DNA of 49,673 nt from a virus (taxonomy: Duplodnaviria > Heunggongvirae > Uroviricota > Caudoviricetes), in the IMG/VR virus record IMGVR_UViG_2778261214_000022, positions 1-49,673 of that record, one strand, 5' to 3'. Both the position numbers and the translations under genes were made by a program. Below are positions 735 through 41,434 of the stretch, piece after piece (within the stretch, counting starts at the first letter, position 1; each line of letters opens with the position of its first letter). Below the pieces are notes generated by a model, which saw only the letters and a list, made by a program, of their open reading frames with translations, ran no database searches and was not told where the DNA came from.

Positions 735-1811
735 TCAGAGCAGTAAGTACGTTTTTTCTCTCTCATCAAGATACATTTTTGTTGTCTTCTCCGATGTGTG
801 GCCAAGTAGACGCTGAGCAAATTCTTCTCCACATGTTTCTTTGTACAATCGTCCAGCCAGACTTCTGATCTCGTGAAAAGTTGGTGGGTTTTCACTGAAC
901 TGGATACCTGTTAATTTTCTGGCTGCGACAAATTTTTTTGTCAGGCCATCCGGGTGAATGCTGCCGTCAGGGCTATTTTTTCTAATCCCGGCACTGATTA
1001 GATAATCTCCCCGGCTTACCAGGCGGCAGCGTTCAACTACTGTACCAAGCCGTAGACCAGCGACAGGAAGGCTGAGTGACAGGGGGATAGCAATCATCAT
1101 TCCTGTCTTAATTTGCCTGATGTGGAGACGATCATCATAAATATCACTGAACCGCATATTCGTTATGTCTTCGCGACGTTGTCCTGTTACAAGGGCTAAG
1201 TCCATAGCTAATGGGAACCATGTCGGAAGTTGATCTGCTGCCTCCCTGATGCAGTTGTATGTCTTTAGTTTCAGTCGTTCTCTTGTAACTACTATTTTCG
1301 GTGCTCTTGTTGGCGTTACTGGATTTTGAGATATACGTCCTTCAACAATGGCCTCACGAAACATATCAGACAACACAGAACGCATTGATCCTGCCATTGT
1401 GTTTTTCCCTCCTTCAATCCACAAATCAAGAAACTCGGCAATATGGCGAGTGGTTATTTCTGTCAGTAAAATCCCTCCCAATTTTTCTTTTATTGTCTCT
1501 AGTTGATTTACCCGAATTTTATAAGTATTTCTGGACACTTTTCTCCTTATAAGAATCGTTTTGTAACGTTCAATCCAATCTGCCATAGTAAATGAGTCGA
1601 ACCCTTTAAGCTTTTCAATTAAGGCAGCAGGAGAGTAGTTTTTGTATATATAATGATTTGCTTCAATTGCCTGCGCTACTGCATCTCTTCTTGAAATTTT
1701 ACCTAGTGTAAATTCTTCTTTCGTCAGAGGGTTGCGCCAGTAATATGCTTTGTCCCTCCTTCGATATGTTAAGTTTTTAGGCAAATTGGGATCGTATTTT
1801 TTCCGCTGCAT
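735..1811 (-). CDS. int: Tyrosine integrase, lambda Int family
   Basis: 358 aa; lambda-Int-like N-terminus and C-terminal catalytic region (HEIRSLAGRLY ... LLGHTSEKTTKMY). Confidence 0.95.
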   Translation of the reverse strand: MQRKKYDPNLPKNLTYRRRDKAYYWRNPLTKEEFTLGKISRRDAVAQAIEANHYIYKNYSPAALIEKLKGFDSFTMADWIERYKTILIRRKVSRNTYKIRVNQLETIKEKLGGILLTEITTRHIAEFLDLWIEGGKNTMAGSMRSVLSDMFREAIVEGRISQNPVTPTRAPKIVVTRERLKLKTYNCIREAADQLPTWFPLAMDLALVTGQRREDITNMRFSDIYDDRLHIRQIKTGMMIAIPLSLSLPVAGLRLGTVVERCRLVSRGDYLISAGIRKNSPDGSIHPDGLTKKFVAARKLTGIQFSENPPTFHEIRSLAGRLYKETCGEEFAQRLLGHTSEKTTKMYLDEREKTYLLL

Positions 1812-2596: not shown

Positions 2597-3430
2597 TTAT
2601 TCTTCTGGATTATCGATTACACTGTATTCCCCGGCTATAACCGATATGTCGTCTGGATTAATTGTTTCCACCTCTTTTCCATCCATCGATACAGCACGCT
2701 GGATTTCAATAGATACCGGCAGATACTTGAACAGTTTTCGTATCACTGTCTTTTTGGCCATGTCTTCAAAGTGTTCATCCCAGATGGACGACTCCCCTTT
2801 TGACGCTGCGTTTTTTGCTGCCTTGCTGTGTGTGTCGCGAACTTTTTCTACCTGTTTGCGGGTCATGACTTCAAACTGCACTCCTCCGTCTTTCAGTTTT
2901 GCAACAGCATAGACATGGGTTATAGGGGCATCTTCGTTTTCACCGGGACGATGAACCAGTTTTTCATCAAGGCCAAGTTCATAGCTGAATTCATCACATT
3001 CACGGACAACACGAGCTGACAGACTGATGATTTGACCTGATCGACGGGCAAGGTCGATCATGCCGCGATAACCGATGATCAGCTGTACGTTCTTCTTACC
3101 GTTTTTTGCTTTTCCGTTGCCGAACGGTAGCAGATATGCATGACCGAGGGCGCTACCTGGCTCAAGTCCGAGCTGTGAACACTGTACGATGGCACCGATA
3201 AAACTCGTCGAGTCACAGTTTCTTAGTTCCGGTACTTTACGGATTTCTGTTGTGGCAATGCGGATCATGCGTTCCGCTGTCATGTGACGTGGCAGAGCTG
3301 CTGCCAGTTGCGCTTTCATTGCCGGGCTGTTAATCACGCACAGCACATCCTTATCGTTAACTGCTGCTGGTGCACGGTTTCCCTGAGTTTTTTGCAGATC
3401 GGCTTTTGCGATAGGTGGTTGCTTAGTCAT
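2597..3430 (-). CDS. recT: Recombinase RecT (single-strand annealing protein)
   Basis: 277 aa from [23 protein letters not shown]; near-identical to remembered Rac RecT; 8 nt overlap with recE. Confidence 0.95.
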
Positions 3431-6110
3431 TTGTATATTCCTTAGCCCAGCGGGGCAGTGATAACGTCTTAATAGCTGGCCATTCATCGGTATTGAGGCA
3501 GTCAGCCAGGGTTCGCAGATTGCGGTGATATTCCTGCTGGCCTGCCAGTTTTGCTTCTTCGCCCATCATGAAAATTTCAACCGGATAACGTCCGCATTCA
3601 ACTGTTGTGCTGACGGCCAGAAAAACGAAAGTTGGTTGCACACCAAACTGTGCCTCATAACCGTCACTGTAGAATGCATCCTGAACGTGATAGCGGTATT
3701 CGTAATATGCGGTTTTGAATCGCTGAATATCCGCCGTAGTTTTCACGTCCACGATCCAGTGAAATTCAGGGATAATTTTGTCCGGACGGCACCGACACAA
3801 AATTCCCGTTTCCGGATCTTCCCAGTAAATTGATGATTCAGCGTGTCCGGCGCTTTCAACAAGCCATTGCCCCAGCGGCAAAGCCATAACGCTCTGATAC
3901 ATGAGTTCAATTTTCCGGCCTTCTTCCGCAGTGATAACTGTTTTTCCTGTGCTTGCGCATTCCATCAGAAACGTTTTCTCTTCTTCTTTTCCGGCGTTTG
4001 TACGGCGGTTAAATTCAGGTGCTACGATAAAGCGGTTACTGAATTCTTCCGGTTCAAGTACACGGCAGTGGAAAGCGGTTCCTAAATCGAGCGTTTTTGT
4101 CTTTGTAGTGTCCACGGGGGCATTTTTACGCCACAAATACAGTGCCGGAGTATCAGCAATGTCATCGAGCTGAGACTTACTGACACCGGGACCCGCGTGG
4201 TAATTCTCATTCGAAATTCCGTAATAAATACCTAGCTCTATGTCTTCTACGATTACGGGATCTGCGACTTCGCCAGTTTCATCACTGCAATCGCGATGCG
4301 GATCGCTGCCAGCATTCTCATTGTGCGGATGTTCAGCGCCTTCCATTTCCTCCGGATCTTTTTCCTTAGCTTCAACCTGATTCTCTTCACCGAATGTTTC
4401 CTGGTATGTTGCGTCGCCCATCACCGCACCACAGTCAGGGCAGTTATCCCCGCCAGTCTGACCGCAGGCATTGCAGACTTTTTCCACTTCCTGTTGCGCC
4501 ACTGGTTCAGGCTGTTTCGTTTCTGGCTCGTTTTGTAACGCATTTTGGCTGTTTTGTTCCGCTTTCTGGTCGTTTTGTTCCGATTCGGGCTGGTTCTGGT
4601 TCACAGAATCGCGGGTTTCAATCCCCTTAACCCATTTCGGATCATTCGGGTCGCTAATTCCGTCAACGAACTCACCGCGTGATGCAGCAAGAAACTTATC
4701 GGCGTCAGGCTGGTTGATATTGGCAGCCTGCATAATTTTGTTTACTTCGTCAGCGGTAACTTTTACCTGATTAACCGGATCTATCTGTGCCTGAGTATCC
4801 AGCGATTGCGTGTCCTGGCGATGTTCAGTTGTATCCGGCTCCATTGCTTCAGTCGTTGCCTGTTCATCTGCCAGTGCGCCAGACGGTTGCGATTTTTCTT
4901 CATCGTTTTTTTCTTCTTCTGTTTCTTGCCCGGCAGCCAGCTCGCGGTTTATTTCTTCCAGGATATCTTTTTCCGGTGTATGTCGTGCAGCAGCGAGGGT
5001 TTCCTTGCTGGGGTTCTCGTGATCAGTTTCCGTTAAGTGGGCGTTGATATACACCTGAAGGCGTACCCTGTAGAGATAAAGTTCAGGGTGGGCGCTCCGG
5101 ATAAGTGCAAAAATAGCGGCACGGGAATAATCCAGGATACCCGGGATTGCGCGAAGTGCTGCGGACCATTCTTTGAACGGACTTTCTTTCTTCCGGACGA
5201 CTTTTTTTGCGCGACGATAAACGCTGCCCGGGATTTCATAAATATTAAAATCCATCGGAAGGGTGGCCGCTGCAATCTCCACATCCAGCGTATCGAAGGT
5301 GTGTACTAAATTCGGATTGCGATCGGTTTTGTTCCCGCCGCCAGCATTAGCACCGGAAGCCGTGCGGGTGATACGCGAAACACGATTTCCTTTCATCCAC
5401 TCTTTTGTCAGCAGACCGCGATCGGTGTAGTCGGCGTCCAGGTATGCTTCGATAAAAGAGGTTATCAGTCCCAGGTCCGAATTTACGGGGGCGGGGAAAA
5501 CTTTGTCAGTGTCTCGCACCAGTTTGTGGAGATCGCGAATTTCCAGTGGTTCGAGTTGCGCTGCTTTATTTGAGATGGCCAGCGCGGCAACGGCGGGAAG
5601 TTTTTCATCCTGTGCGTTATGTAATGCGCGCAGTTCGTCCCGCGAAACGTGTGTGATCGGTTTTTCGCTGCCGTGCTGTGCCAGCCATCGAACAGGCAGA
5701 ATCTGACCTGAAACCGGCAGGAGCATGTTCTCCTCAATCTCAGCCATGTCTTCGCCGTTGACGTTGGTATTGTCAGTGCTGGCTGGTTTATCCTGAACAG
5801 AGGGTGAGGGCGCGATAAATACCATTGTGATGCCATCTTCCCCGCCTTTTTCGTAACGGTTGCAGAATTCCGTATCAAATACGCCTTCTGGCGGGAGGTC
5901 ATTAACAACGGGCAAATTGACGCGAACAGGTTTTTTGAAGTCATCTTCATCGTATCCAGCATCGTCAATCGCAACAGCACCACGGGAGATGGCAATGGAT
6001 AATTTTTTCGTTTCAGCCCAGTAAAAACCGCCTTTAATACCGAGACGTTTTCTTACTTTGTCATTTTTTGCTTCGTAATACAGTGGGTAAACTTGTTTAT
6101 CGGTGCTCAT
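3423..6110 (-). CDS. recE: Exodeoxyribonuclease VIII RecE
   Basis: 895 aa; C-terminal nuclease domain matches remembered Rac RecE ([48 protein letters not shown]). Confidence 0.95.
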
Positions 6111-6211
6111 TGTTTTTTAACCTCAACTCAGATTAAAATTCGTTTTGTTCAGTGAATGATCTTGCTGGATACACACTGTTCGTAGCCTGCGACATACGCA
6201 GGCTATTTCTT

Positions 6212-6487
6212 TCAGATTTCACCTTTTAATTTCATTGCAATCAGAGTTGCCAGAAATTCGGCTTTTTTTTCTGCAGGCAGATTCTTTCCGATATGCACCA
6301 GGCACATTTTTTTGACACCTTCATCAAGTGTTTTTACGTTGCCTGATGGACCATCGATATCAACCACAGTGAATGGGGTTTCTTTATTTTCTGTTTTAAT
6401 CACGTAGCCAATACGCTTTCCTTCCAGATTAACCTCGTGAACAATGTCATCGGTAGTTACAACAGTGGCTTCATAACTGGTAATCAT
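6212..6487 (-). CDS. racC: RacC-like protein
   Basis: 91 aa (MITSYEATVVTTDDIVHEVNLEGKRIGYV...), position just downstream of recE as in Rac. Confidence 0.8.
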   Translation of the reverse strand: MITSYEATVVTTDDIVHEVNLEGKRIGYVIKTENKETPFTVVDIDGPSGNVKTLDEGVKKMCLVHIGKNLPAEKKAEFLATLIAMKLKGEI

Positions 6488-6560
6488 TTTTTCTCCTTAA
6501 TTAAGGTTGAGCGAATACCTGCCATTTTTGGCATAAATTCAGTTTCGAATAGTCAATTAA

Positions 6561-6731
6561 TTAAAGTTCGTGTGCCATCTGGTCTTTTTCGGCACAGATT
6601 TCACTACAATATTTTTTCATTTCCGTCGTTGGTATAACTCCACGCATGAAATGAAGTGGTCTTGTAATGATTTTGCTTTCTTCAATTTCTTTATTGCAAA
6701 GGTGATAAGCACATTTTATTTTCTTAGTCAT
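6561..6731 (-). CDS. ydaE: YdaE-like small Cys-containing protein
   Basis: 56 aa ORF found by hand translation ([56 protein letters not shown]); below the 60 aa ORF-track cutoff; start overlaps kilR stop (TAATG). Confidence 0.65.
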   Translation of the reverse strand: MTKKIKCAYHLCNKEIEESKIITRPLHFMRGVIPTTEMKKYCSEICAEKDQMAHEL

Positions 6732-6952
6732 TACCATGACTCCGCCTTTACAGGTAAACCATCACGACCGAGGAAGACTTTAATCATGCAGTCAGAAATG
6801 CATGTTTTTGTAGTCAGGCTACGAATATAAAGTTTTCGCTTTTTAATATTGTTTGCCGAGGCGATATATGTCCGACCTTCATGAAGAACATAATCGCCAG
6901 GGGTCACACACTGACGTGGTATTTCATCAGTTCCGAAGTGATGAGCAATCAT
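6731..6952 (-). CDS. kilR: KilR-like cell-division inhibitor
   Basis: 73 aa from Met5 ([32 protein letters not shown]...), GGAG RBS 6 nt upstream; matches remembered Rac KilR. Confidence 0.8.
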
Positions 6953-7130
6953 AATTATCTCCATTTTTACAAATGAATTTTGTCGATGCGGTGCCTGGTG
7001 CCTCCAGGTGACGTTAACCAGTTAACAATTAACGCCGGATATTTCACCCATAACTCTGCTACGAAGGACAATAGCTTTTTAACTGTTCCGCGTGCGCTTA
7101 GCCGCATTCACCGCATCACAAAATTCACTT

Positions 7131-7178
7131 TAAAAAGGGCGGACATCAGTCGAACTTCAAGAAAAAACTGATGCCGCC
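7131..7178 (-). terminator. Intrinsic terminator-like hairpin inside the leftward early operon
   Basis: ~12 bp stem gggcggacatcagt/actgatgccgcc; the plus-strand A-run 7131-7136 gives a T-run after the hairpin on the minus strand. Confidence 0.45.
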
Positions 7179-7376
7179 AAGACTACACACAGCAGTGTTG
7201 TTATTCACAACCGGAGGCGCACTCCCACCATTTAAATTTAACAGACAAGACCGACTCTTTATGGATATCGGAAATGCGCCTTCGTGTTGTGCCCGGTTTT
7301 ATTTCACCACCTCCGGGCTTTGGTGGCCTCGGCTATACCCCTACAGCGAGAATATTGAATTAATCCAAATAATGGA

Positions 7377-7529
7377 TTAGCAAGTATTTCTGGCAAGCCA
7401 GCGACGTGCGCCCGTTTCAGTTTTGAATGTCTTGCTTTTGGTATAAGTCATGGCGGTGAACGTTCCATCCTGGTTGGGGAACACGCCACACACCAGGGAT
7501 TCGTTGTTGCCGAGGTCGATTTTTTGCAT
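7377..7529 (-). CDS. ydaF: YdaF-like small protein
   Basis: 50 aa ORF by hand translation (MQKIDLGNNESLVCGVFPNQDGTFTAMTYTKSKTFKTETGARRWLARNTC); name from Rac synteny and size. Confidence 0.55.
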   Translation of the reverse strand: MQKIDLGNNESLVCGVFPNQDGTFTAMTYTKSKTFKTETGARRWLARNTC

Positions 7530-7539
7530 TTTTCGCACC

Positions 7540-7674
7540 TCACATTTTGTTGTTGCGGATAGAGGCTTCTGCCTGCCAGAGATCCCAGTCGTTGCTGCGT
7601 AGAGCCTGTACAGCCTGGCTGTAAGTGATACCGCAACAATCCATCAAATACTGAACTACTTCGTAATGCACCAT
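7540..7674 (-). CDS. ydaG: YdaG-like small protein
   Basis: 44 aa ORF by hand translation (MVHYEVVQYLMDCCGITYSQAVQALRSNDWDLWQAEASIRNNKM); first gene of leftward operon. Confidence 0.55.
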   Translation of the reverse strand: MVHYEVVQYLMDCCGITYSQAVQALRSNDWDLWQAEASIRNNKM

Positions 7675-7741
7675 TTTATCTCTCCCTTTAACGCCGGGTT
7701 GCGGAACTAAAACCTACAGCGCCGTGCTGTTCTTGATAGAA

Positions 7742-7770
7742 ATATTAGTAACGCGGATATTTTAAGTCAA
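7742..7770 (-). promoter_or_regulatory. PL-like sigma70 promoter for leftward early operon
   Basis: Minus strand TTGACT - 17 nt - TAATAT (plus coords 7765-7770 and 7742-7747), ~65 nt upstream of ydaG-like start. Confidence 0.5.
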
Positions 7771-7867
7771 CAGTATGGCGTATAATATTTTTGATTTGGT
7801 AACTATGTAAATGTTTTTTCAAGGGAAAAATATTAGTTATACAGCTGATTTGCAGAAGTTATGGCAC

Positions 7868-7898
7868 AAAAAAAACCGACTAAGACGTCGGTTTTTTT
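7868..7898. terminator. Bidirectional intrinsic terminator downstream of repressor gene
   Basis: A-run, hairpin ccgac-taagac-gtcgg, T-run. Confidence 0.6.
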
Positions 7899-7924
7899 GT
7901 TGTGGATGGGGTAGTGAGCGGTGG

Positions 7925-8386
7925 CTACTGGTTACGTTTCTTTAGTGCCAGCATGTTCTCGAAGGCTTCCTCGTAGAGCTTGTTTAGTCCACGTAGCTGG
8001 TTAAGGAGTTTGGCTTTTTCTGACGCAGGTAGAATCTCGAAGAGGTTAAGCAACTCTGCCTGTTCTTCATTGACCAGCCTCCATCCTTTGCCTGAAAAGC
8101 TATCATCATAAGTATCTGATGATCTTACATAATTCATTAAGTCTTTAAGGTCTTCTCGAATGTCCTCTGGTTTTACCTTTAACAGAGCCGCAAATTTTAG
8201 CGCAGCATCGGTATTTACCGGTATCTTGCCGTTCAGATACTGGCTAACGGTGCCTTGAGATTCGAATCCCAACAACTCAGCCGCCAGCTCTTGAGTCAGC
8301 TTCAGCTCTTTTTTTCTTGCATTCCATGCGGCTTTTAAATTCTTGCTCGCTTCTGGAGTTGCAATCACTTCGCGTGTTTTTTTCAT
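7925..8386 (-). CDS. Prophage repressor, XRE-family HTH, DicA/RacR-like, no S24 peptidase domain
   Basis: 153 aa; HTH (LTQELAAELLGFESQGTVSQYLNGK) and C-terminal region resembling DicA; divergent from cro/ydaS-like gene. Confidence 0.85.
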   Translation of the reverse strand: MKKTREVIATPEASKNLKAAWNARKKELKLTQELAAELLGFESQGTVSQYLNGKIPVNTDAALKFAALLKVKPEDIREDLKDLMNYVRSSDTYDDSFSGKGWRLVNEEQAELLNLFEILPASEKAKLLNQLRGLNKLYEEAFENMLALKKRNQ

Positions 8387-8434
8387 ACATAGAGTTTATT
8401 TGTTTTACCAATATTATCAAAGATAGTTTGACTA

Positions 8435-8463
8435 TTGATCTTTAAAATTAGTGGGGCTAATAT
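8435..8463 (+). promoter_or_regulatory. PR-like promoter for rightward ydaS-like operon
   Basis: TTGATC - 17 nt - TAATAT in the 100 bp divergent intergenic region. Confidence 0.4.
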
Positions 8464-8487
8464 TTGCTCGAGGCATAACGTAGAAGG

Positions 8488-8769
8488 TTGGCTATGAACT
8501 TAAGAGACTATTTAAAAGAGAAACATATCACCCAGCTACAGTTTGGGAAGCTAACGGGTTTATCTCAGGTGCACGTAAGTCGAGTGCTGGGGGGCTATGA
8601 AAGATTCAGCCCTGAAAAAGCATTACGTGTTGCTGAAGTAACGAATTTCGAGGTTACACCTCATGAACTCCGGCCTGATATCTACCCGAATCCAACCGAC
8701 GGTTTACCTGTTGGATGTAAGGCTAACACACAAAATACACAGGAGTTGATTCATGAAAATCAGGCATGA
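8488..8769 (+). CDS. ydaS: YdaS-like Cro/CI-family HTH protein
   Basis: 93 aa, HTH (LTGLSQVHVSRVLGG), LRPDIYP motif; first gene rightward of repressor as in Rac racR-ydaS-ydaT. Confidence 0.75.
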   Translation: MAMNLRDYLKEKHITQLQFGKLTGLSQVHVSRVLGGYERFSPEKALRVAEVTNFEVTPHELRPDIYPNPTDGLPVGCKANTQNTQELIHENQA

Positions 8770-16152: not shown

Positions 16153-16442
16153 TGGTGAATTTGCGTAAAGCGGCGCGGGGCCAGATGTGCCAGGTCAGAA
16201 TTCCTGGCTACTGCAATCACAATCCCGGAACGTCTGTGCTGGCACATTACAGGCTGGCGGGGACGTGTGGAACAGCGACAAAACCACACGATATGCAGGC
16301 GGCGATTGCCTGTAGCTCGTGCCACGATTTAATCGACGGGAGAGTAAAAACCATCGATTACACCAAAGAAGAATTGCGCCTGATGCATGCAGAAGGTGTT
16401 TTTCGCACACAAGAAATCTGGAGAAAGGAGGGATATTTGTGA
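16152..16442 (+). CDS. DUF1364-like Cys-rich phage protein
   Basis: 96 aa with CQVRIPGYC ... CSSCHDLIDG motifs; TAATG overlap with upstream gene. Confidence 0.7.
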   Translation: MVNLRKAARGQMCQVRIPGYCNHNPGTSVLAHYRLAGTCGTATKPHDMQAAIACSSCHDLIDGRVKTIDYTKEELRLMHAEGVFRTQEIWRKEGYL

Positions 16443-16981
16443 TTTACCCAACGAATACAGGAAAAAGCGGAGAACACCTTCGTCTCACTACGCTGGAAAG
16501 TGTCTGGATTCAGGGAAAACTGCGTATGTGGGGGCGCTGGTCGTATATTGGTGGCGGTAAGACAGGGAATATGTTTAACCAGATGTTGACCTCTAAAAAG
16601 CTGACAAAAACGGCAATTAACGAGGTGCTCCGGAGGATGAAAAAAGCAGGTCTGGACAAGCCTGAACTTGAGGCTTTTTTGCGGGATATGATTAACGGCA
16701 AGCAAAAGAGCTGGCTGGCACATTGTGCCGATTCAGAGGCATTAATAATCGACAGAGTTATTGGCGAAGTTATGGCGGATCATCCGGGATTGATTTGTAT
16801 TCTCCGGCAACGCTATGAGGGGCGGGGGATGACTAAGCGAAAAATGGCTGAATTGCTAAATGATGCACACCCAGAGTGGTGTTTTAGCACATGCGAAAAG
16901 CGAATTGCTAATTGGTTGGCTGTTGCTGAGTATGCGCTATACATTCCCATGCGAGAATCATTTGCTCAAAAAATGGCTTGA
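16439..16981 (+). CDS. Q-like late antiterminator (candidate)
   Basis: 180 aa from GTG with AAGGAGGG RBS; MWGRWSY motif resembles Q family; sits immediately upstream of terminator, tRNAs and lysis genes. Confidence 0.55.
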   Translation: MIYPTNTGKSGEHLRLTTLESVWIQGKLRMWGRWSYIGGGKTGNMFNQMLTSKKLTKTAINEVLRRMKKAGLDKPELEAFLRDMINGKQKSWLAHCADSEALIIDRVIGEVMADHPGLICILRQRYEGRGMTKRKMAELLNDAHPEWCFSTCEKRIANWLAVAEYALYIPMRESFAQKMA

Positions 16982-17700: not shown

Positions 17701-17776
<76 letters not shown>

Positions 17777-17779
17777 TAT

Positions 17780-17851
<72 letters not shown>

Positions 17852-18026
17852 CTCTTGTAAAACAAACGAGGCATAGCTTTATCAGCACTGGCGAATTTTC
17901 GCGGAGAACAGCTTTGTAGGTACTATTGTTTTTCTTCATGCTGTAATATCTGAACGGTTACAGTTTCAGTGCTGCTTTTTTTGTATTACATAATGGTATG
18001 TGATTATTACTTGTAAACGTCGTTAG

Positions 18027-41101: not shown

Positions 41102-41434
41102 GATGACCTCTGTTTGTTTTCTTCGAATTACCACTATCTGAGTGGTGCCAGGAGGTTCGAAACGGCACAAACAAAGCCGCGGACTTATTCCCCTTTCGGG
41201 TGTTGTATTCGTCGCCCTCCCGACATTGATCGGGGATGTGACCGCACATGGTGCCATCACTAAATAGTAGGCATAAAAAATCCAACACTGACGGGGTTGG
41301 TTGTGACCGTGTTTGTTGAGGTTTCGACGCCTCATGCACATAATCATACTCAATAGCTCATGGATGTAAAGTCTGATTTGAATAGAGAAAAACCGTTGAT
41401 AAAATCCGCATGAACATTTGATAATGAGGTGATT

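Follow-up and report, generated by a model that had tools for sequence, protein, structure and literature searches.

How does transcription from the left promoter of this prophage get past a strong internal hairpin to reach kilR, the recombination genes and int, when the operon begins with two very small genes, neither of which resembles the antitermination gene N of lambda? The locus lies within a viral sequence of 49,673 nucleotides (IMG/VR record IMGVR_UViG_2778261214_000022, positions 1 to 49,673), the whole of which is referred to here as the window. The original prediction left two answers side by side, an RNA-based mechanism like the put sites of phage HK022, or read-through that is simply partial. 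Our analysis favors the second and gives it a wider frame. We estimate a probability of about 0.85 that the left operon is a Rac-type version of the dicB operon, in which the hairpin would be the leaky terminator of the small RNA KilS and the downstream genes would be reached by partial, N-less read-through.

The window contains a prophage of the Rac-like lambdoid kind, whose insertion adjoins the ryeA/sdsR small-RNA locus. Its left operon is transcribed from the minus strand in the order ydaG, ydaF, kilR, ydaE, racC, recE, recT, lar/ralR, xis, int, and annotation bears out the gene order that had been proposed (ydaG, ydaF, kilR, on through recE and recT to int). Over 6100-8500, identity to the closest complete E. 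coli genome is 98.6%, and the gene annotations there are the same (DUF1391 protein, kilR). The landmarks outside the first genes are these:

463-607: SraC/RyeA, by Rfam match
504-603: SdsR, by Rfam match
1811..735, minus strand: int
2169-2347: RalA antitoxin RNA, by Rfam match
6110..3423, minus strand: recE
7869..7898, both strands: bidirectional intrinsic terminator, AAAAAAACCGAC-6 nt-GTCGGTTTTTTT
7925..8386, minus strand: prophage repressor gene, HTH_3 domain, DicA-like C-terminus
16319..16981, plus strand: Q-like late antiterminator gene, DUF1133, weak Phage_antitermQ match, phrog_753

The repressor gene occupies the position of racR/dicA. Its product matches Pfam HTH_3 (1.1e-9) and the PHROGs category 'transcriptional repressor', its C-terminal 42 amino acids are 38% identical to K-12 DicA, and in phage Rac-SA53 this 462-nt gene bears the annotation 'dicA'; the immunity region as a whole, repressor and promoter, is of another type than that of K-12 racR. 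Upstream of the left-operon promoter, the transcript of the repressor gene ends at the 12-nt inverted repeat at 7869..7898, which is 100% complementary and flanked by runs of A and T. Facing this bidirectional terminator from about 100 nt away is a TATAAT on the plus strand (7781-7786), and weak Rfam matches to STnc430 and STnc370 cover 7782-7905 (+); a short rightward transcript across 7782-7905 is conceivable. Downstream of the Q-like gene lie tRNA-Thr(TGT) and tRNA-Gly(TCC) (17701-17852, +), followed by the holin and endolysin genes, and late control is of the Q type although N is absent. In the distal part of the window, 41139-41224 (-) matches Rfam sRNA-Xcc1 with 70.9 bits, above the gathering score.

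The operon itself starts with the following elements:

7742..7770, minus strand: predicted left-operon promoter, -35 TTGACT at 7770..7765, -10 TAATAT at 7747..7742, spacer 17
7540..7674, minus strand: ydaG, 44 aa, UBA-like, phrog_14709 (unknown function)
7377..7538, minus strand: ydaF, DUF1391, 50 aa from the ATG at 7529

A match to promoter hexamers proves nothing on its own, because sites of equal quality are as frequent in shuffled sequence: seven promoter-quality sites were found against 5.8 expected in 4 kb, which is not above chance, and a site matching 10/12 positions lies at 7811..7782, about 40 bp upstream of the one considered here. The latter agrees with the consensus at 9/12 positions in a sigma-70 scan, so that the term 'near-consensus' was generous. 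The claim that it is a promoter stands on comparison instead. At least seven heteroimmune relatives carry TTGAC(C/T/G)-17-TAAnnT at a fixed distance from a conserved leader, with different spacers and flanks, and Qin, upstream of ydfA, is one group with this motif at the fixed position. Given that the hexamers and the distance are kept across immunity types while the spacers differ, TTGACT-17-TAATAT is, with high probability, the true left promoter, homologous by position to the Qin promoter upstream of ydfA and thus equivalent to that of the dicB operon. An AATATT-centred motif (AAATATTAGT / TAATATTTTT) recurs around this promoter at 7740-7749, 7783-7792 and 7826-7837, with a spacing of about 44 bp, and again at 8412-8418 and 8459-8465 in the repressor/cro-like intergenic region. 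These copies may be operators, or merely -10-like AT-rich boxes; a consistent longer palindrome, as expected of operators, was not seen among the repeats around the left promoter.

What, then, is the hairpin in the roughly 400 nt of minus-strand non-coding sequence between ydaF and kilR? We find that it is the 3' part of a gene:

7132..7228, minus strand: KilS small RNA, 97 nt, orthologue of K-12 b4833
7235..7243, minus strand: candidate extended -10 promoter of KilS, TGnTAAATT, read from sequence
7132..7178, minus strand: predicted KilS intrinsic terminator, 13-bp stem with one bulged U, then C and U5

The strong minus-strand hairpin with a T-tract that had been described at this place is well founded. 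Its stem runs from 7178 to 7138 and its U5 from 7136 to 7132, its energy is -23.8 kcal/mol (z = -3.5), and 0/200 shuffles fold as well. No other strong intrinsic-terminator-like element occurs on the minus strand from the promoter to int. The loop is large, 14-16 nt, and a simple terminator scan with a loop limit of 8 nt therefore missed the hairpin, for which direct folding was used in its place; with such a loop and a U-tract of just 5 U, termination efficiency is not reliably computable from sequence. A second hairpin, 10 bp and GC-rich, lies between racC and recE (6182-6206). As its T-run is on the plus strand only, it was ruled out as a terminator of the left operon; oriented against the operon, it may stop antisense transcription.

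In the K-12 RefSeq record the ncRNA gene kilS (b4833, 1418405..1418502) lies between kilR and sieB in Rac. The window's KilS is identical to it at 92/98 positions (5 substitutions and 1 single-base indel), and its position is orthologous, directly upstream of the kilR leader and on the kilR strand; the terminators of the two differ at a single pair, A-U to G-U, in the uppermost part of the stem. On these sequence grounds the hairpin is the Rho-independent terminator of a known small RNA and not an anonymous terminator, and because it would also serve as an Hfq-type 3' module, it is the end of a gene as much as a stop inside an operon. K-12 KilS was predicted from Hfq RIL-seq data, and northern analysis verified an RNA of about 98 nt, which was described as coming from the 5' UTR of kilR and as likely to have an independent transcription start; it took part in only three RIL-seq interactions, all with low scores, and its reproducible partner was yncL (Bar et al. 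2021, PMC8175672). The TGnTAAATT motif in the window lies 7 nt upstream of the position that matches the K-12 KilS 5' end. It is the same in K-12 Rac and nearly invariant in 25 KilS-type loci (the -12 T position varies in 4/25), and it is the candidate for an extended -10 promoter that KilS probably has of its own.

The element is common. Its whole 97 nt recur at 90% identity or more in 1585/5426 complete E. coli genomes (~29%), and in the 25 matches sampled no annotated feature lies under KilS; since it scores just under the Rfam DicF cut-off, KilS goes unannotated in this share of the genomes. The same arrangement is found in recovered phages, for example Rac-SA53, where no N is annotated. 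Compared with K-12 Rac, the window lacks sieB, and ydaF is followed 148 nt on by KilS on the same strand, so that left-operon transcripts can run into KilS. K-12 Rac has sieB on the opposite strand between ydaF and kilS, and forms with and without sieB both occur among related phage contigs. Within the interval 7229-7376 of the window, the ydaF stop codon comes within about 30 nt of the conserved region upstream of kilS.

KilS has a better known relative. At gathering thresholds, Rfam reports nothing at the hairpin site, and the matches to DicF and STnc100 described here appear in its E-value mode only. The full DicF model (RF00039) aligns at 7191..7137 (-) with 42.8 bits (E 9.8e-8), below the gathering cut-off of 48; on the same model K-12 KilS scores 39.1 bits and true DicF 76.7 bits. 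The terminator shares GGCGG...CCGCCCTTTTTAAAGTGAATTTTG with the homologous DicF terminator, and the Rho-independent hairpin that characterizes DicF, GGCGG...CCGCC followed by a U-tract, is present in the window. Likewise, Rac-type and Qin-type loci have in common the core UUGGCGG(U/C)AUCAGUUUU, the terminator's 3' half together with the flank (CCGCCCUUUUUAAAGUGAAUUUUGUGAUG), and the larger part of a leader of about 170 nt, after which the genes are unrelated, kilR in the Rac type and dicB in Qin. By this comparison KilS is a diverged relative of DicF, and the two are versions of one module. They differ in the loop and the 3' arm, where the ftsZ-pairing loop ACUCCG of DicF is replaced by UUCUUGAAG, and in the 5' part. 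KilS is extended at its 5' end by a structured domain of about 45 nt and seemingly has its own start, and the full RNA folds as 5' domain plus terminator with -35.4 kcal/mol (z = -3.46). The 5' end of DicF, in contrast, is cut by RNase E (PMC5069750, Balasubramanian et al. 2016, with reference to Faubladier et al. 1990). With the ftsZ-pairing loop lost, KilS may act on other targets, and RIL-seq in K-12 gave yncL. The best local duplex of KilS with ftsZ has -15.3 kcal/mol, no better than shuffles; the test is crude and tells us nothing, since true DicF does not stand out from shuffles in it either. Whole-molecule prediction of KilS and DicF duplexes with ftsZ yielded meaningless long duplexes and was discarded.

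Scanning viral contigs for the shared core recovered 113 genuine elements, 87 of them DicF-type, 25 KilS-type and one of a third type. All follow one order. After the repressor comes a DUF1391 gene, accompanied by YdaG or YdfB/YdfC, and optionally sieB on the opposite strand; the small RNA is next, and KilR/YdaE or DicB/YdfD closes the series. Space for an N gene is absent from all of these more than 100 phage-contig loci. Some loci are mosaics, three joining DicF to KilR and one joining KilS to DicB. The DicF/KilS RNA, the structured leader and the division-inhibitor gene thus behave, to judge from these arrangements, as exchangeable cassettes that recombine at the shared leader. The third small-RNA variant (GGCGGAATCAGTTTTTGCTTCGCTACTGCTCTTCCGCC) is found in one viral contig locus. 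In the literature searched, no paper was found that names KilS and DicF together. Sequences like dicF were probably described in Rac as early as Faubladier and Bouché 1994 (J Bacteriol 176:1150) and Conter et al. 1996 (J Bacteriol 178:5100).

Could the hairpin be nothing other than a transcription stop that insulates the toxic kilR gene, the RNA that ends there having no regulatory role? This is the strongest of the alternatives, and we still regard it as improbable. It agrees with the toxicity of kilR, which is kept silent in K-12, with the few and low-scoring RIL-seq interactions of K-12 KilS (PMC8175672), and with the failure to predict significant pairing to ftsZ, a result that has to be read together with the same failure for DicF. 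It fits poorly with the conservation of the whole 97 nt, rather than of the hairpin alone, in the 1585 genomes, and with the structured 5' domain that contributes to the z-score of the full RNA. RIL-seq, moreover, captured the K-12 RNA in chimeras on Hfq, and for its homologue DicF a regulatory role is proven.

Downstream of the hairpin, the transcript that escapes termination enters a second structured region:

6965..7131, minus strand: structured kilR leader (STnc100-like), 167 nt from the KilS terminator to the kilR start codon
6731..6964, minus strand: kilR, FtsZ/division inhibitor

The kilR product matches phrog_294, 'Kil protein for bacterial septation inhibition' (1.1e-37). Over 6945..7135 (-), the leader aligns to the full Rfam STnc100 model (RF02076) with 40.8 bits, the cut-off being 47; Qin has this leader ahead of dicB, with a score of 34.4 bits. 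A consensus fold of 42 distinct sequences has an outer helix that pairs GAUG(C/U)GGUG with CAC(C/U)GCAUC, in which both variable positions alternate between G-C and G-U only, and an inner hairpin in which two pairs show compensatory change (GC to UA, UA to GC). The leader between terminator and kilR is a real RNA structure. Its outer helix begins about 19 nt past the KilS terminator, which is the place expected for the 72-nt end that RNase III gives DicF, and by this analogy we infer that the helix is an RNase III site.

How the dicB operon deals with its terminator is documented. PMC5069750, citing Faubladier et al. 1990, describes two 3' ends of DicF, one made by Rho-independent termination (53 nt) and one by RNase III processing of read-through RNA (72 nt); in the same article (PMC5069750) DicB, which lies downstream of DicF, is expressed from that operon without N. 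As the dicB operon yields both a small RNA and a longer mRNA, its terminator is leaky by design. Of the two options named at the outset, partial read-through is therefore the best supported, since the homologous operon is known with both terminated and RNase III-processed read-through forms. A second barrier is likely as well. According to PMC5793797 and PMC12482147, citing Cardinale et al. 2008, Rho and NusG silence kilR in K-12, and the gene comes on once NusG declines, which makes a factor-dependent barrier downstream of the hairpin likely here too.

We propose that the operon works as follows. The repressor-controlled promoter at 7770..7742 would transcribe ydaG and ydaF and then run into the KilS gene (7228..7132). 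The hairpin would set the 3' end of KilS, supplying the stem-loop and U-tail typical of Hfq-binding small RNAs, and at the same time would be a leaky barrier to transcription into kilR, recE, recT and int. The polymerases that pass it would make a long RNA in which the 167-nt structured leader stands ahead of kilR, and the example of DicF makes it probable that RNase III cuts the leader. An antiterminator of the N type would play no part; expression downstream would be set by promoter firing and partial read-through, with Rho/NusG termination as a further limit, as in K-12. For the prophage in the window, both the partial read-through and the RNase III cleavage of the kilR leader are carried over from the homologous operons and are to be taken as presumptive.

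A question remains, is there an antitermination device of another kind? Rac/Qin-type prophages might carry one that is unrelated to N, Q and put, residing either in the 5' leader of the left-operon transcript or in YdaG or the DUF1391 protein. We consider this unlikely, slightly more so than a stop without regulatory role. If it were true, the device would on induction switch the KilS/DicF terminator from the making of a small RNA to full read-through into kilR/dicB, recET, xis and int. The leader contains one candidate element:

7716..7730, minus strand: small 5' hairpin of the left-operon transcript, ACAGC-ACGGC-GCUGU, flagged by the scan as terminator-like

Its pairing is kept through four variants of the stem (ACACC/GGTGT, ACAGC/GCTGT, CAACGA/TCGTTG and GCAC/GTGC). 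Downstream of it and just ahead of the ribosome binding site lies a conserved box, GTTCCGCnACCCGGCGTTAA, nearly invariant whether the first gene is ydaG or ydfA, and the conserved leader before the first gene reads ...GTTCCGCnACCC(C)GGCGTTAA(A/G)GGGA..., then the start codon. Hairpin and box together might thus render polymerase resistant to termination in cis, in the manner of the HK022 put RNAs, and carry it past the KilS hairpin after induction; for an operon that has no N and whose recET, xis and int genes lie beyond a good terminator, this would be of advantage. This version is again a little less probable than the general proposal. The HK022 record has no put annotation, and putL and putR were located through their mutual similarity. 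A pattern search for putL/putR-like sequence gave 8 matches in the window against 11 expected, and nhmmer gave a best E of 5.4 in the window, its sole left-operon match having E = 37. Nor is there a stable two-stem RNA upstream of the terminator: the ydaG leader (7675-7735 region, -) folds with z = 0.06, no better than shuffles, and the ydaF-kilS spacer with z = -0.06, and Rfam finds nothing relevant. The search for put-like structures that the original prediction had called for thus speaks against a put-like mechanism. In addition, K-12 sieB opposes the operon between ydaF and kilS, and KilS is reported to have its own promoter, downstream of the leader. The 5' hairpin and the conserved ribosome-binding region are most simply an mRNA-stability and translation element.

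As to proteins, the claim that the operon has no N-like gene and that its first genes are tiny and not arginine-rich holds. YdaG (Pfam UBA_4, 23.4 bits against a cut-off of 21.8) has 2 Arg and YdaF (Pfam DUF1391, 3.6e-29), a homologue of Qin YdfA, has 3 Arg; neither matches N, Nun, Q or other antitermination families in Pfam or PHROGs. YdaG is annotated as 'hypothetical' or 'uncharacterized', and it exceeds the Pfam cut-off for a UBA-like domain. No arginine-rich motif occurs in the operon-strand ORFs from the promoter (7770) to the recE start (6110), and arginine-rich ORFs elsewhere in the window mostly overlap longer ORFs. A 46-aa ORF at 7107..6967, with some Arg and Lys, was considered as a hidden N-like protein and rejected, because it lies inside the conserved RNA leader, has frame-shifting indels relative to K-12 and Qin, and has no Pfam match. 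Inspection by eye only revealed no boxA (CGCTCTTA) beside the covarying 5-bp leader hairpin. That YdaG or YdaF is a new kind of protein antiterminator in place of N is the least probable of the alternatives and very unlikely: both are first genes after the left promoter, where N would be, and in K-12 they lie beside sieB, like lambda N, a DUF1391 gene precedes the small RNA in most loci with a captured upstream region, and neither protein has a known function, but both lack an arginine-rich RNA-binding motif and any similarity to N, Q or antitermination families, YdaG is replaced by the unrelated YdfB/YdfC in DicF-type operons, and a nut-like boxA/boxB pair was not seen.

How such a terminator can stand in an operon without N would thus be explained: the hairpin is read as the end of a known prophage small RNA in an operon of the dicB type, where read-through is partial and N is not needed. 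KilS, its terminator and operons of this type without N have been described before, and the observation that raised the question is correct but known. The under-annotation of KilS and the exchange of cassettes may help the annotation of prophage small RNAs, and they leave current understanding unchanged.

Set beside known systems, the left arm resembles that of lambda pL in its succession of repressor, post-repressor terminator, left promoter, small early genes, kil-type gene, recombination genes, xis and int, and K-12 Rac extends the likeness, with sieB beside the early genes as N lies near sieB in lambda. Unlike lambda and HK022, the window has no N or Nun homologue, arginine-rich ORF, recognisable boxA/boxB pair or put-like sequence. 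The kilR leader shares its outer helix and inner hairpins with the STnc100/PasD prophage RNAs (Zhu, Shabalina and Storz, bioRxiv 2026, 10.64898/2026.05.13.724894), yet it scores below the cut-off and is here the 5' leader of kilR, in Qin that of dicB, and not obviously a free-standing small RNA. The closest counterpart is the dicB (dicBF) operon of Qin, which likewise has a repressor, a DUF1391 gene, a small RNA with a terminator, a leader of about 170 nt and a division inhibitor, and no N gene; the inhibitor is KilR in the window and DicB in Qin.
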